A stretch of 44,421 bases of DNA from a virus (taxonomy: Duplodnaviria > Heunggongvirae > Uroviricota > Caudoviricetes), in IMG/VR virus record IMGVR_UViG_2529292911_000009. One strand, given 5' to 3'. The stretch's first letter is position 1. Each line of letters opens with the position of its first letter. Shown here piece by piece: positions 973-43,344 of this stretch. The notes under the pieces were generated by a model, which was given only the letters and a program-made list of their open reading frames with translations, had not been told where the DNA came from and did no database searches. Made by a program: the position numbers and the translations under genes.

Positions 973-1235
973 CTTAATCCAAGAACATACTCCCTACCTA
1001 TAGCAAAATCACTTTTTTAACAAAAGAATAACGTATTTAGGTAAAAATTACGAATTTACCCTATAGGTGCTACTGGCCATTCAATATCCGGTGCAGTTGA
1101 TGTATCAACACGGTTCAGCAACACCCGATACTTTTTCCAGGCTTCCAGCAACAAGGTTTCTTCCTCCGTTGCGATTTCCAGCTCAACAACAGTCTGAACG
1201 TACCAGGAACAGCCTCCTTCAGGGCTTGAAGGATA

Positions 1236-2505
1236 TCAATGTTCGCTTCCTGTTAACTGCCCGACAAGTGCAACCAGTTCGCTTACCTGATTTTCCAGAG
1301 TGCTGATCCGGGTGCCTGCTGTTGCCAGATTTTTACGTAGCGTTATGTTTTCCTCTTCCAGCGCGGTAACGCGACCATCTGTTTCACGGGCGACCTGAAC
1401 AAGTAACCCCGTCACGGCGGCGTAGTCAACATTCAGATAACGTGTTTCTTCACGTAATTCATTGCCGTCAACCGTTGGTCCCTGCAACTCTTCACCGTAA
1501 TGAGTAAACGATCCCACAGCTTCTGGTATCGCCTCCATTACTTCCTGTGCAATAACGCCAGCATAAGGCATCCCGTTTTCCCTGAGCGTGTAGGTGTATC
1601 CGTTCATTTTACGGATTGCTTTCGTCGCGTCGCTGATAACGAGAATATCGTCTTTAAGGTCGCGGTCTGATGACTGATTCAGCGTTGTGCAATTAATAGC
1701 GCCATTTACATCAAACAACTGGCCTGCTGACGTTTTTTGCGCATAAAACAGATACGCAGCAGACGTTCCAACCTCAAAAACGTTTTGTCGATCACTTGAT
1801 CCCCATACTTTTGCGGCAAATGATAGTTCTGTATTACCTAAGTTCTGTAAAACAAAACGATTGCCAGTCCCTGATTGTTTTGTAAGAGTTAAATCAACAG
1901 TTGAGTTAACCTCATCCTTGTTGATAGTGAGCGCCTGCGCTTTAGCACCGTTAACAGCACCTGTTTTGAGTTGAACTGCTCCATCACTGCCATTAAGTAG
2001 AATCTCTGCATTACTATGGTAGTTCTTAAGTGACACCATTTTGCTTTCGCCTGAGTGCATACCTAACACCCACGCAGCGGAACTACCTGTACTGTTAAGG
2101 CCGCGAACATAGCATGACATTGTAGAAAATCTGCAACGCTACCAAGTATCTCTACCCTACCTCCACCGGATTTAACTGGTGATGATGTTGTTACTGACTT
2201 AACAGAAAGCTCGGTTGCTGAATTGAGATCGTCAGCCGTAAGTAGTTTTTTCCATTCCTGAACCGTTCCGTTTTCAACTGTTCTTCCCCAAAAACCGGAA
2301 TTGCGGCCTCCGAACTGCACAGCATAATTTTTACTAAATTGAACATGAATGCCGCCAAGAACCATAGAGCCTGCCGGGCCGTTTGTACTACCTGCGATTG
2401 GTCTAAATTTGTCGACGTTATCAGTATGCTGAGCGTTCCAGTCATGACCTGTTAATGTTGCGATTCCTGAGTTAGCTGTAATTAACCCAGACGCTTTTAA
2501 GATTT
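1236..2505 (-). pseudogene. side tail fiber, C-terminal part in two shifted frames; includes C-terminal intramolecular chaperone (peptidase S74-like) domain
   Basis: ORFs 2063..2365 and 1236..2120 continue the tail fiber in other frames. Frame junctions fall at a T5 run (plus 2503-2507) and an A4 run (plus 2126-2129); adding one base at each restores one long ORF. The C-terminus (SFTHYGE...YLNVDYAAVTGLLVQVARE) resembles autocleaving chaperone domains. Could be genuine decay or homopolymer sequencing indels. Confidence 0.65.
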
Positions 2506-26220: not shown

Positions 26221-26295
<75 letters not shown>

Positions 26296-26298
26296 ATA

Positions 26299-26374
<76 letters not shown>

Positions 26375-26376
26375 AC

Positions 26377-26453
26377 TGGACCGCCACCGGGGACTCGAAC
26401 CTCGCACACTCAACTTAAAGGGTTGACGCTCTTTCCTGATGAGCTAGTGGCGG
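26377..26453 (-). tRNA. tRNA-like gene, anticodon loop CCUUUAA (nominally Lys UUU), atypical
   Basis: Cloverleaf can be drawn (acceptor CCGCCAC/GTGGCGG, D stem GCTC/GAGC, T loop TTCGAGT, CCA) but it has C at position 33, C1-G72, U73 and one T-stem mismatch. Confidence 0.45.
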
Positions 26454-26454
26454 C

Positions 26455-26530
26455 TGGTGGCCCTTGCTGGATTTGAACCAGCGACCTGGCGATTATGAGT
26501 CGCTCGCTCTCACCACTGAGCTAAAGGGCC
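26455..26530 (-). tRNA. tRNA with CAU anticodon, ileX-like (tRNA-Ile2 lysidine type) or Met
   Basis: Acceptor GGCCCTT, anticodon loop CUCAUAA, T loop TTCAAAT. Closely resembles E. coli ileX as recalled. Confidence 0.7.
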
Positions 26531-29944: not shown

Positions 29945-30100
29945 TTACTCCTCAGGTTCGTAAGCTGTGAAGACAGCGACCTCCGTCTGGCCGGTTCGGA
30001 TTCGTACCTCGCAGAGGTCTTTCCTCGTTACCAGTACCGTCACTATGACGGTTAAACAGATGACGATCAGGGCGATTAACATCGCCTTTTGCTGCTTCAT
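29945..30100 (-). CDS. hok: Hok/Gef-family type I toxin
   Basis: MKQQKAMLIALIVICLTVIVTVLVTRKDLCEVRIRTGQTEVAVFTAYEPEE is a typical Hok (close to hokD/relF as recalled); an in-frame upstream extension to 30157 resembles mok. Confidence 0.85.
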   Translation of the reverse strand: MKQQKAMLIALIVICLTVIVTVLVTRKDLCEVRIRTGQTEVAVFTAYEPEE

Positions 30101-30300
30101 AGCCTGCTTCTCCTTGCCTTTCGGCACGTAAGAGGCTAACCTACATTTGTGAGACATAGATTGGGCCTCAGATTAATGTTAAGCGTCTTGCAGGACGCGT
30201 AATGTTAACTGGGGCTTTTCTCTATCTGCCTTTTGGTGTTCATGCCCGAGGCAGATAGCCTCAAGCACCCGCAGCAATTCTACTTAACTCTCCTTTTCCC
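30101..30300. other. hok mRNA leader with long hairpin and probable antisense Sok region
   Basis: Inverted repeat tctatctgcc...ggcagataga at about 30222-30262 in the expected leader position. The Sok promoter was not pinned down. Confidence 0.4.
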
Positions 30301-35363: not shown

Positions 35364-35789
35364 TCAATGTACTGCCACAGCATTTCCTGCCGGGCCACCA
35401 CGGTTCATCTGATTGAAACCGGCGATTGCCACTGCGACAAAATCATCAGCGTCTCTCACCAATCGCTCCCGCGTCTCCACCAGCTCCCGAAAATAAGCTG
35501 AACTGTGGCTGCGCATTCTGGCCACCAGCAAAGGTGGCATTGCCTTTTCGATCGCTGGTAACAACGCCTGAATTTTTTCAACTGCATCAGGGGTGTCTTT
35601 CTCTACCCAGCGGAAAATTTTCTGGGTATTGCGAGCCAAGGCTTCCGGATGGCTGTCGTCATACAGTTCCGGGAACGTCATTCCCAGCTCGAAATACGCT
35701 TTGGTAATTTTCGCAGCCGGTACTTTTTCGCCGTCCGGATGCGCCCAGGCATTCATCGCCATGCGGATGTGTTCATGCTTGATTTTCAT
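35364..35789 (-). CDS. YdaT-like protein (CII-type regulator candidate)
   Basis: 141 aa immediately downstream of the Cro-like gene; N-terminus MKIKHEHIRMAMNAWAHPDGEK resembles Rac YdaT as recalled. Confidence 0.5.
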   Translation of the reverse strand: MKIKHEHIRMAMNAWAHPDGEKVPAAKITKAYFELGMTFPELYDDSHPEALARNTQKIFRWVEKDTPDAVEKIQALLPAIEKAMPPLLVARMRSHSSAYFRELVETRERLVRDADDFVAVAIAGFNQMNRGGPAGNAVAVH

Positions 35790-36040
35790 GAATCAACTCC
35801 CATCAGCTTTTTCGTAGTAGTTTTATTCCTGCCAATAGTTAAAATTGCATCGGCAGAAAATAATCCGTTTGATGCAAGAGCGATTTTTTCAGCGTAATTT
35901 GTTTCGCCGGTATATTCTGTGCGAGGCAATTTTCCGTTATCCATCCATTTATAGATTGCTCTTTGGCTGACACCACAAACGTCGGCCACAACAGCAACGC
36001 GAACAGTTTTGATTACATCTTCAAGTGTTTTCTGGTTCAT
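35786..36040 (-). CDS. Cro/YdaS-like HTH regulator
   Basis: About 84 aa from MNQKT with HTH-like segment VADVCGVSQRAIYKWM; divergent from the repressor gene. Confidence 0.65.
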   Translation of the reverse strand: MNQKTLEDVIKTVRVAVVADVCGVSQRAIYKWMDNGKLPRTEYTGETNYAEKIALASNGLFSADAILTIGRNKTTTKKLMGVDS

Positions 36041-36119
36041 ATCACCCTCATAATGTGAACTTTGAGTACATGCTATAACAGAACTGACAGTACATTCAAG
36101 AGCGAATATCATTGAACTT
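36041..36119. promoter_or_regulatory. divergent promoter/operator region of the immunity switch
   Basis: 79-bp gap between divergent regulator genes with two AGTACAT motifs (36064, 36088). Confidence 0.5.
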
Positions 36120-36539
36120 ATGGTTCATGAAGATAAAGCGCGTAAAGAGTTCGCCAGTAGGCTTGCGCTAGCCTGTGAAAACGCTGGTTATGAACAACAT
36201 GGAAGGCAGGCAGAAATTGCCCGTCGAATGAAATTAACACCAAAAGCGGTTAGCAAATGGTTTAATGGCGAAACAATTCCTCGCCGGGAGAAATTAAGGG
36301 AATTAGCAACACTAATAGGAACAACACCAACCTATCTTTTGGGAGAGGATACAGAAGAAAGTGGACAGGTACGTTTCTATCAGGAGTTAAATCCAAGACA
36401 AAAAATCATCATTGACCTTCTGGACGAGCTCCCTGACAGTGAGACAGATGAACTTTTAAAAACTCTTGAAGAGAAAAAACAGAAGTACAATGCAATTTAC
36501 GAAGAGTTAGCACGAAAGAAAAAACAAAAAGCCTCTTAA
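36120..36539 (+). CDS. prophage repressor, RacR-like HTH protein
   Basis: 139 aa with HTH segment QAEIARRMKLTPKAVSKWF, divergently transcribed from the Cro-like gene. Confidence 0.65.
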   Translation: MVHEDKARKEFASRLALACENAGYEQHGRQAEIARRMKLTPKAVSKWFNGETIPRREKLRELATLIGTTPTYLLGEDTEESGQVRFYQELNPRQKIIIDLLDELPDSETDELLKTLEEKKQKYNAIYEELARKKKQKAS

Positions 36540-37151: not shown

Positions 37152-37370
37152 ATGCAGAAACGAGAACCCGTCATCATCGCGCCAGATTATACCGATGATG
37201 AACTTTATGAGTGGATGCGCCAGAAAATTAATGCAGCGCAGGATCTGAAATGGGCCAATGAAGCCAGGGCTAAGCAGGCTGAAAATCTGTCCGCTCTGGA
37301 GCAGGATATCACCAGGCTGGAAAAAGCAGCGGCATTAAGCATTGCCAGAATGATTACATACCCGCGTTAA
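37152..37370 (+). CDS. small hypothetical early protein (KilR-position candidate)
   Basis: 72 aa ORF with coiled-coil-like C-terminus; GAGGAA RBS. Confidence 0.4.
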   Translation: MQKREPVIIAPDYTDDELYEWMRQKINAAQDLKWANEARAKQAENLSALEQDITRLEKAAALSIARMITYPR

Positions 37371-37399
37371 TAGCTAACCAACGAAGCTAAGGTTGGTAA

Positions 37400-37935
37400 T
37401 TAAGGAGTTCTCCACGGGTGAGGTGGAGTGCGTGCGCCGGACACGGGTGAGCATCCGGCACTGACAGTTTACTGAAAGGATATTTCCATGAAAAGTCAGA
37501 CCATAACGCGAAAGCGCACGGCGAGGTAGCTGGTTCATAGATAGCCTGTCGTTAAATTTTCGTCGGCCGTGCGCTTCCGGTTGTGGCACTCCGCGAAATG
37601 GCGCGGCGGTAAGTATGGCGGGGTTATTCCTTCCCCGTTGAGGACACCTGGTTGTCAGGTTGACCATACGCTTAAGTGACAACCCCGCTGCAACGCCCTC
37701 TGTTATCAATTTTCTGGTGACGTTTGGCGGTATCAGTTTTACTCCGTGACTGCTCTGCCGCCCTTTTTAAAGTGAATTTTGTGATGCGGTGAATGCGGCT
37801 AAGCGCACGCGGAACAGTTAAAACCAAAAACAGTGTTATGGGTGGATTCTCTGTATCCGGCGTTAATTGTTAACTGGTTAACGTCACCTGGAGGCACCAG
37901 GCACCGCATCACAAAACTCATTGTTGAGGGCGCGA
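37400..37935. other. structured GC-rich noncoding region with nested hairpins and a long-range 15-nt inverted repeat
   Basis: No credible ORF. 14-bp hairpin 37509-37522 / 37566-37579; exact inverted repeat ttttgtgatgcggtg (37777-37791) / caccgcatcacaaaa (37902-37916); GTTAAC-TG-GTTAAC palindrome. Confidence 0.5.
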
Positions 37936-37937
37936 TA

Positions 37938-38126
37938 ATGAAAACGTTATTACCAAACGTTAATACGTCTGAAGGTTGTTTTGAAATTGGTGTCACTATC
38001 AGTAATCCTGTATTTACTGAAGATGCCATTAACAAAAGAAAACACGAACGGGAGTTATTAAATAAAGTATGCATTGTTTCAATGCTGGCCCGTTTACGTC
38101 TGATGCCAAAAGGATGTGCACAATGA
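37938..38126 (+). CDS. small hypothetical protein
   Basis: 62 aa from MKTLLPN with GAGGG RBS; first gene after the structured region. Confidence 0.45.
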   Translation: MKTLLPNVNTSEGCFEIGVTISNPVFTEDAINKRKHERELLNKVCIVSMLARLRLMPKGCAQ

Positions 38127-42187: not shown

Positions 42188-42277
42188 TGGCGGAGAGAGG
42201 GGGATTTGAACCCCCGGTGGAGTTGCCCCCACTCCGGTTTTCGAGACCGGTCCGTTCAGCCGCTCCGGCATCTCTCC
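42188..42277 (-). tRNA. serU: tRNA-Ser (anticodon CGA), serU-type
   Basis: 90 nt with long variable arm, anticodon loop CUCGAAA, CCA encoded. 5' end GGAGAGATGCCGGAGCGG. Confidence 0.85.
42203..42249. repeat. att-type direct repeat, right copy (inside intact tRNA-Ser)
   Basis: Matches 151-197 with 3 mismatches; two of them form a compensatory base-pair change in the tRNA variable arm. Confidence 0.75.
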
Positions 42278-43268: not shown

Positions 43269-43344
43269 TCCTCTGTAGTTCAGTCGGTAGAACGGCGGAC
43301 TGTTAATCCGTATGTCACTGGTTCGAGTCCAGTCAGAGGAGCCA
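43269..43344 (+). tRNA. asnT: tRNA-Asn (anticodon GUU)
   Basis: TCCTCTGTAGTTCAGTCGGTAGAACGGCGGACTGTTAATCCG...GAGCCA, anticodon loop CUGUUAA. Confidence 0.9.

Follow-up and report, generated by a model that had tools for sequence, protein, structure and literature searches.

A structured gap upstream of dicB in a lambdoid prophage very probably corresponds to the dicF segment of a Qin-type dicBF operon

The large noncoding gap in the early-left operon of the prophage analysed here is, with high confidence, the dicF segment of the dicBF operon found in Qin-type prophages, and its hairpins would be the determinants of dicBF transcript processing. The window, that is, the whole stretch of DNA under analysis, comprises 44,421 nucleotides (IMG/VR record IMGVR_UViG_2529292911_000009). 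An original prediction, made from the sequence alone, had called attention to a large coding gap and had read it as a structured noncoding RNA, a long regulated 5' leader or a degenerate sieB-type region. The gap itself was confirmed, measuring 567 nt between the ydfC stop (37370) and the dicB ATG (37938). The first of the three readings was right in substance, although the region had not been recognised as the dicF gene, which became apparent when the Rfam covariance-model search suggested at that time was run and DicF (RF00039) was found. The DicF identity of this region is already known and does not constitute a new noncoding RNA; at the annotation level, the gap should read as dicF plus its processing signals. 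This sRNA has been on record since 1989-90 and has a curated Rfam family. It prevents the synthesis of FtsZ, reprogrammes sugar metabolism and, in EHEC, activates virulence.

At the locus level, the gene order is ydfA-ydfB-ydfC-dicF-dicB-ydfD, with ydfD (recognised by a DUF1482 Pfam match) immediately 3' of dicB and an exonuclease VIII-like gene next after it, and Pfam places HTH regulators at 35786-36539, the dicC/dicA position, 5' of the operon. The element thus occupies the operon position of dicF, between ydfC and dicB and 3' of a dicA/dicC-like immunity region. The annotated gene order of a K-12-like genome matches (ydfA/B/C-dicB-ydfD synteny), and in genomes that are 100% identical the gene at 37938-38126 is annotated dicB. 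Comparison with the Qin (Kim) cryptic prophage of E. coli K-12, whose dicF corresponds to Rfam RF00039, reveals the same gene order, the same 53-nt DicF and the same flanking hairpins; the two spacers align without gaps at 97% identity, differing by 16 substitutions in 568 nt, and DicF itself is identical. This arrangement is widespread: among 5,426 complete E. coli genomes, 3,516 have at least 80% of the spacer adjoining dicB, the median copy number being two per genome, and the spacer is also present in Stx and other lambdoid phages. The features of the region are collected in the table.

Table. Features of the ydfC-dicB region, in window coordinates
Feature	Coordinates	Strand	Description	Basis
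ydfC	37152..37370	+	72 aa, last gene 5' of the gap	ORF; equivalent K-12-like position annotated ydfC
I2	37501..37586	+	interrupted ~22-bp helix; perfect core 37512-22/37566-76, lower stem 37501-07/37580-86, ~40-nt loop	fold
Module X	37580..37694	+	conserved structured domain, 5' part of the 190-nt DicF form	30-sequence covariation
Module X outer stem	37580-87/37687-94	+		covariation model
Module X hairpin a	37591-95/37602-06	+		covariation model
Module X hairpin b	37619-23/37633-37	+		covariation model
Module X hairpin c	37649-57/37677-85	+		covariation model
Module X pseudoknot	37613-18/37664-69	+	possible	covariation model
Linker	37700..37713	+	AU-rich, single-stranded, with RNase E site CAAU↓UUUC, cut before 37711	linker identical to K-12
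DicF sRNA	37711..37763	+	53 nt; single-stranded 5' seed region and terminator hairpin 37726-37762	Rfam RF00039, K-12 identity, fold
U-tract	37764..37768	+	DicF Rho-independent terminator	sequence
I1	37773..37920	+	19-bp closing stem P1, 37773-91/37902-20; putative RNase III site	fold, covariation
I1 H1	37795-99/37805-10	+		fold
I1 P2	37811-17/37851-58	+		fold
I1 H3	37859-68/37876-85	+		fold
I1 H4	37887-91/37897-901	+		fold
I1 pseudoknot	37816-21/37870-75	+	AGUUAA with UUAACU	covariation of family equivalent
dicB Shine-Dalgarno and start	37926..37940	+	GAGGG; start codon ATG 37938	sequence
dicB	37938..38126	+	62 aa, cell-division inhibitor, first gene 3' of the gap	Pfam PF05358, 135 bits, E 5e-40

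The strongest evidence for this identification comes from the sRNA itself. The Rfam match lies on the plus strand at 37712-37763 and covers the full model (positions 1-52) with a score of 76.7 bits against a cut-off of 48 (E 2.5e-15). When 37711-37768 is folded, the first 15 nt are left unpaired and are followed by a hairpin at 37726-37762 and then UUUUU, which is the structure of DicF. Therefore, the hairpin plus CTTTTT element of the original prediction, indeed present at 37726-37768, is the DicF sRNA with its own terminator. A simple terminator scan did not report this terminator because its loop exceeds the length that the scan allows. On the 5' side, the RNase E site of the linker presumably fits the RN↓WUU motif of the enzyme.

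The biogenesis of DicF has been worked out in K-12, where the RNA of identical sequence binds Hfq, owes its 5' end to RNase E and acquires its 3' end from either the terminator or RNase III. It has been demonstrated that the polycistronic dicBF RNA gives rise to a 190-nt DicF species through RNase III and to the 53-nt form through RNase E (Ragunathan 2023). The 3' end of the 53-nt form results from Rho-independent termination, while cleavage of the full-length RNA by RNase III produces a 72-nt DicF (Balasubramanian 2016 and a 2022 review, both citing Faubladier 1990). Judged from its sequence, the determinants of this processing are conserved in the prophage. The operon would be transcribed as one RNA from the PL-like promoter dicBp, and its spacer would then be cut up to release the Hfq-dependent DicF following the steps shown in K-12: an upstream RNase III cut would generate the 190-nt precursor, an RNase E cut in the AU-rich linker would produce the mature 5' end, and the 3' end would be formed either by Rho-independent termination (53 nt) or by RNase III acting on read-through transcripts (72 nt). 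Mature DicF would finally repress the ftsZ, xylR, pykA and manX mRNAs, a set of targets established for the identical K-12 RNA. SroC, from gltIJKL, is likewise an intra-operonic sRNA produced by early Rho-independent termination and RNase E processing of its 5' end; DicF departs from this scheme in that RNase III provides a further route and in being flanked by two conserved structured domains.

The two RNase III cleavages can be assigned to specific stems. Counting 190 nt back from the end of the terminator (37763-68) leads to 37574-79, inside the 3' arm of the upstream hairpin I2, and counting 72 nt forward from 37711 leads to 37782, halfway along the 5' arm of P1, the closing stem of the downstream element I1. 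Because both counts end in their arms, I2 and P1 are taken as two RNase III substrates: from fragment length, position and fold, I2 would be the substrate that defines the 5' end of the 190-nt precursor, and P1 the site where the 3' end of the 72-nt DicF (~37782) would be formed on read-through transcripts. The I2 segment (37501-37586) folds at -37.4 kcal/mol (z = -3.5). It had been described as a 14-bp hairpin around a 44-nt loop, which agrees with the arms measured at 37509-22/37566-79, 14 nt long, 93% complementary and separated by 43 nt, with a perfect core of 11 bp; a perfect inverted repeat of 11 bp was reached in 7 of 200 shuffles. The core helix of I2 is invariant among Qin-type copies and has almost no covariation support, and one compensatory pair was seen, by eye from the alignment, in its Rac-type analogue. 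The supplementary sequence panel of Ragunathan 2023 begins inside the I2 loop.

At the downstream site, a staggered cut in the 19-bp P1 stem would also create the 5' end of a dicB mRNA with a 5' untranslated region of ~26-28 nt. To this extent the reading of the gap as a long regulated 5' leader held: the 3' arm of the repeat does end 17 nt before the dicB start, and an RNase III cut there might have a regulatory effect. In phage early transcripts, such as the lambda N-leader and sib or the T7 R sites, long near-perfect RNase III stems split functional units and define mRNA ends. The prophage stem differs from these examples in that it closes a conserved pseudoknotted domain instead of a simple hairpin.

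Beyond DicF, the gap as a whole is unusually structured, as had been predicted. Its minimum free energy is -223 kcal/mol versus -187.5 +/- 6.8 in dinucleotide shuffles (z = -5.2), and every feature listed beforehand was recovered at, or a few bases from, its predicted position. Three inverted repeats were returned by a repeat finder, at 37773-91/37902-20, 37509-22/37566-79 and 37618-32/37674-88. The first of them contains the exact 15-nt repeat noted originally (37777-37791/37902-37916, with 110 nt between the arms), which was verified and can be lengthened to 19 nt if 95% is accepted; in 200 dinucleotide shuffles the longest perfect inverted repeat measured 13 nt, and none attained 15. The GTTAAC-TG-GTTAAC palindrome is likewise there, at 37869-37882. 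Not all parts of the gap contribute equally, since shuffles fold as well as the 5' hairpins at 37400-37470 (z = -0.6), and z is -1.8 for 37610-37695 when this segment is folded by itself. A comparison across relatives, another check proposed with the original prediction, detected covariation in both I1 and module X, the segment between I2 and DicF.

The interior of I1 (37792-37901) is a conserved folded RNA. The element folds at -58.6 kcal/mol (z = -5.3), and across 17 distinct copies from IMG/VR and E. coli the model leaves 96.8% of cells paired, a value matched by none of 500 shuffles and compared with 30-40% in slid controls. Compensatory changes affect five pairs in these copies: two belong to the closing stem, two to H3 and one to P2. 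The P2/H2 arm is not the same in Qin-type as in Rac-type copies. Relative to K-12 Qin, one substitution in each P1 arm (37787 and 37905) turns a G.U pair into a G-C pair, and one further substitution, at 37917, creates an A.C mismatch with 37776 in the prophage stem, where most copies carry A-U. The pseudoknot of I1 makes use of the GTTAAC palindrome. The layout of terminator, long closing stem, Shine-Dalgarno and gene is seen again in Rac-type prophages, where the gene is kilR; in e14-like, Citrobacter and Erwinia lineages a different long-range stem of ~20 bp follows the terminator and brackets ~95 nt, after which comes the Shine-Dalgarno. This architecture of terminator, long stem and gene is therefore conserved even where the stem sequence is unrelated.

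Module X, of ~115 nt, is also a conserved folded RNA. Its model of four helices plus a possible pseudoknot keeps 95.6% of cells paired over 30 sequences, with compensatory changes in 8 pairs; none of 500 shuffles did as well, and slid controls gave 34-51%. No Rfam family matches it. A pattern scan identified 59 distinct versions in viral contigs, and copies were also found in E. albertii, E. ruysiae, Shigella, Citrobacter, Trabulsiella, Erwinia tracheiphila and Izhakiella; in the genome-contig scan the GC-rich 18-base pattern also matched ~35 unrelated high-GC genomes by chance, and a conserved-core filter left 15 genuine Enterobacterales-type and P1-like copies together with 2 retained matches attributable to chance. 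An e14-like prophage, Stx2c phages and phage P1 carry the module without the DicF seed. The P1 copy is part of the ban leader, immediately 3' of the C1-controlled Pban promoters, and it overlaps a feature annotated 'dicF-like region'. An intrinsic terminator follows it in every lineage inspected. Rac-type prophages lack module X, and there an I2-like hairpin stands directly 5' of the DicF-like RNA. In the 190-nt DicF isoform, module X accounts for the first two-thirds from the 5' end.

The conservation of these folds raises the possibility, put forward here tentatively, that the sequences flanking dicF are functional RNAs themselves, the interior of I1 being an operon-embedded, RNase III-excisable relative of STnc100/PasD and module X an unannotated RNA structure. 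If either flanking domain were functional, the dicF locus would encode more than one functional RNA; module X, in particular, might influence termination or processing in cis, or it could turn the long DicF isoform into a distinct regulator. As far as the literature search went, the function of the conserved dicF-flanking folds has not been addressed.

The relationship of I1 to STnc100/PasD deserves separate consideration. The Rfam STnc100 model (RF02076) matches I1 with 38.8 bits, below its cut-off of 47, at E 7e-7 locally and 4.5e-5 over the whole window. An IMG/VR scan with the shared 3' motif retrieved more than 120 loci, from which 70 distinct STnc-type copies were used to derive an RNAalifold consensus. 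This consensus displays the same P1/H1/P2/H3/H4 layout as I1, whose interior folds into a four-way junction like that of the family, and it has many compensatory pairs. In addition, 36 sequence classes show complementarity between the segment following H1 and the H3 loop (e.g. CCAGUC/GACUGG, AUCAGC/GCUGAU and CUGGUG/CACCGG), which form a pseudoknot with a mean of 6.45 bp versus 4.44 bp in mismatched pairings. This covarying pseudoknot is not displayed in the Rfam STnc100 consensus. A covariance model built only from the 70 STnc-type copies recognises I1 over its full length with all 24 of 24 consensus pairs formed and 67.8 bits, a score inflated by the way its seeds were collected, the 22-nt motif used for this having come in part from I1; the same model finds no match in HK022 or phage P1. 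STnc100/PasD and I1 share the frame GGUGAAU...UCACCNGGAGGCACCNGGCACC; in both, a closing stem encloses three or four hairpins, and the post-H1 segment forms a pseudoknot with the H3 loop. They differ in the sequence and register of H1 and in the closing stem, which is 19 bp long in I1 versus ~7-8 bp in STnc-type copies. Their genomic settings differ as well: STnc-type copies are found 3' of TTGACA-type promoters and 5' of terminators in the late region, by holin, lysozyme and esterase genes, which fits the Zhu/Storz preprint, whereas I1 in dicF-type copies resides in the early-left operon between the terminator of DicF, or of a DicF-like RNA, and dicB, or kilR in Rac-type prophages. I1 is thus best called a diverged structural relative of STnc100/PasD, sharing the structure of the family but not being a member by the Rfam criterion.

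From this kinship it could be argued that the 110-nt interior of I1 is a diverged STnc100/PasD-type sRNA, excised by RNase III from read-through transcripts to work as a trans regulator or a sponge. This is regarded as doubtful. The significant, if sub-cut-off, Rfam match, the formation of every pair in the STnc-type model and the shared layout with its covarying pseudoknot are in agreement with it, as is the description of STnc100 and PasD as Hfq-associated prophage sRNAs (Zhu/Storz preprint), and the arm that varies between Qin-type and Rac-type copies does so as a target-specific region might. However, no plus-strand promoter-like site was found for I1, which also has no terminator of its own and runs into dicB, so that, unlike the STnc-type copies, it does not have the organisation of an independent sRNA gene; the retrieval bias noted above weighs on the model score, and the literature search yielded no transcript of matching size. 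A built-in sponge based on pairing between the DicF seed and I1 (GGUGACGUU at 37716-24 with AACGUCACC at 37880-88) was also considered and rejected, given that repeats of at least 9 nt arise in 66 of 200 shuffles and that the 9-nt match is absent from Rac-type copies and other DicF variants.

A role in cis on the toxic downstream gene is the other function that might be envisaged, in which module X, I1 or both would modulate read-through of the DicF terminator in a put- or attenuator-like manner, or would couple dicB translation to RNase III. Several positional regularities speak for it: module X always precedes an intrinsic terminator in the lineages inspected, its phage P1 copy sits directly behind the C1-controlled Pban, and an I1-type element always lies between the terminator and a division inhibitor or other gene (dicB, kilR). 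At the translation level, a helix between 37694-37700 and 37926-37932 is predicted to pair the dicB Shine-Dalgarno in the full-length RNA with a probability of ~1.0, and thermodynamic prediction lowers this pairing to 0.01-0.02, leaving the site free, once the RNA starts at 37911. Nevertheless, this helix lacks conservation, since the upstream partner segment is unrelated in copies whose dicB Shine-Dalgarno is the same, and it must be considered a weak, copy-specific prediction. I1 cannot affect DicF termination because it is located downstream of the terminator, and no alternative antiterminator pairing was seen between module X and the terminator. The put RNAs of HK022 are comparable in being structured, encoded in cis and part of the early operon of a lambdoid phage lacking N, and the phage P1 copy of module X is placed directly after a promoter and before a terminator. 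Neither I1 nor module X showed similarity to putL or putR in sequence or structure: an Rfam scan of the HK022 early region gave nothing relevant, and BLAST against HK022 returned only chance matches of 9-13 nt. Besides, put is ~70 nt long and consists of two stem-loops, compared with the ~115 nt and four helices of module X. Altogether, such a cis role is judged unlikely.

That the gap hides a protein gene, either the 111-aa minus-strand ORF or a degenerate sieB, is highly improbable, since the open frame (37374-37709), the 54-aa hypothetical protein that PGAP annotates there in some RefSeq genomes and the proximity of sieB to the equivalent element in Rac-type prophages are outweighed by the absence of Pfam matches for gap ORFs on both strands, by a segment from I2 to DicF whose length differs by a non-multiple of 3 in 14 of 42 distinct versions, by a minus-strand frame open in only 17 of those 42, by a short plus-strand ORF whose ATG (37489) is CTG in K-12 and by a conservation that tracks base-pairing and not codons. 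The only ORFs across the gap are the Arg-rich 111-aa one and others of 36 and 51 aa, and the earlier opinion that they are implausible was borne out. A frame conserved among homologues, which would have refuted the original prediction, was not found. The suggestion of a degenerate sieB-type region found no support, as Rac-type prophages carry sieB as an intact, separate gene upstream of the element and nothing resembling it was recognised in the gap by Pfam, the one search applied here and one that a very decayed remnant could escape. The 54-aa minus-strand protein is probably spurious because its frame is unconserved, length shifts are tolerated and conservation follows pairing.

With the region identified as the dicF segment, the additional findings are modest comparative observations made on sequences, namely the kinship of the spacer with STnc100/PasD, the pseudoknot of the family and the breadth of module X, none of which was found mentioned in the literature search. 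Their forward-looking value is only comparative and lies in the existence of covarying folds, one related to STnc100/PasD and the other common to the phage P1 ban leader and distant Enterobacterales. Finally, the prophage and K-12 Qin operons diverge beyond ydfD: the former runs on into a full-length exonuclease gene, more ORFs and tRNA genes, whereas in K-12 Qin the exonuclease gene is shortened by an IS2 transposase remnant.

At the level of gene organization, the sieB-kilR interval of Rac-type prophages contains a DicF-like RNA followed by an element of the I1 type, that is, resembling the inverted-repeat-closed fold that separates the DicF terminator from dicB in the window. A cassette composed of a small RNA, a structured element and a division inhibitor is therefore common to Qin-type (dicB) and Rac-type (kilR) prophages. 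Within the window, the 5' seed of DicF, GGUGACGUU (37716-37724), is perfectly complementary to AACGUCACC (37880-37888) in the downstream element. This complementarity is within chance, since a repeat of at least 9 nt was also present in 66 of 200 shuffles, and it is not conserved in the Rac-type copies.

Module X, the structured domain located between the upstream hairpin I2 and DicF, has also been found in other surroundings. In several lineages (L268, L273 (Citrobacter), L275 (Trabulsiella), L282 (Erwinia tracheiphila), L284 (Izhakiella) and the e14-like E. coli prophage L003) module X and a terminator are followed by a different long-range stem of about 20 bp, with arms ACAAAACAGAGAAGAGCAUCACC and GGUGCUCUUCUCUGUUUUGU, which encloses about 95 nt and precedes GGAGAAAC and a gene. 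The architecture of these loci is like that of the inverted-repeat element of the window but the sequence is unrelated, and the Citrobacter and Erwinia versions of the stem seem to differ by compensatory changes. Moreover, the leader of the ban operon of phage P1 (AF234173, 880-1060), situated immediately behind the C1-controlled Pban promoters, is a copy of module X followed by an intrinsic terminator, and part of it is labelled 'dicF-like region' in that record.

Among the IMG/VR loci L005-L124, the STnc100/PasD-type RNAs, which the downstream element resembles, share a covarying pseudoknot in which the stretch after the first hairpin pairs with the third hairpin's loop. Across 36 sequence classes this pairing has a mean of 6.45 bp, as opposed to 4.44 in mismatched pairings; it is absent from the consensus line printed with the Rfam match. 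In some viral contigs two or three STnc100-type elements are clustered within 0.3-4 kb, the spacing being exactly 484 nt in four contigs.

At the dicF locus, the dicF ncRNA is missing from the feature tables examined, and in some RefSeq genomes a 54-aa 'hypothetical protein' is annotated opposite the dicF upstream region, on the other strand. Frame-shifting variation argues that this CDS is spurious.

RNA genes, elements and annotated features in the window and in the compared loci (L-numbers)
Feature	Location	Strand	Score or remark
DicF-like RNA, Rac-type	L002 2951-3006		39.1 bits, below cut-off of 48
I1-type element, Rac-type	L002 3023-3157		56.9 bits, our model from STnc-type copies
STnc100/PasD-type RNA	L007 1647-1767	-	
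STnc100/PasD-type RNA	L005 8093-8208	-	
Clustered STnc100-type elements	L012 (2322-3354), L067 (4376-8519), L084 (7207-7583), L018, L037, L058, L078		
WP_001331716.1 CDS	L004 1504-1668	-	equivalent to about window 37374-37538 (-)
Match to sok antitoxin RNA (hok/sok-type toxin-antitoxin locus)	window 30095-30270	-	RF01794, 120 bits, cut-off 59
Cluster of four tRNA genes, within phage	window 26224-26530	-	
tRNA gene beyond early-left operon end	window 42191-42277	-	
tRNA gene beyond early-left operon end	window 43269-43341	+	
IS009-like match	window 1096-1296	-	Rfam, 93.8 bits, cut-off 117, E 3e-20

Elsewhere in the window, the sok RNA match is strong and lies within the prophage, and the IS009 match falls below the Rfam cut-off yet is highly significant.
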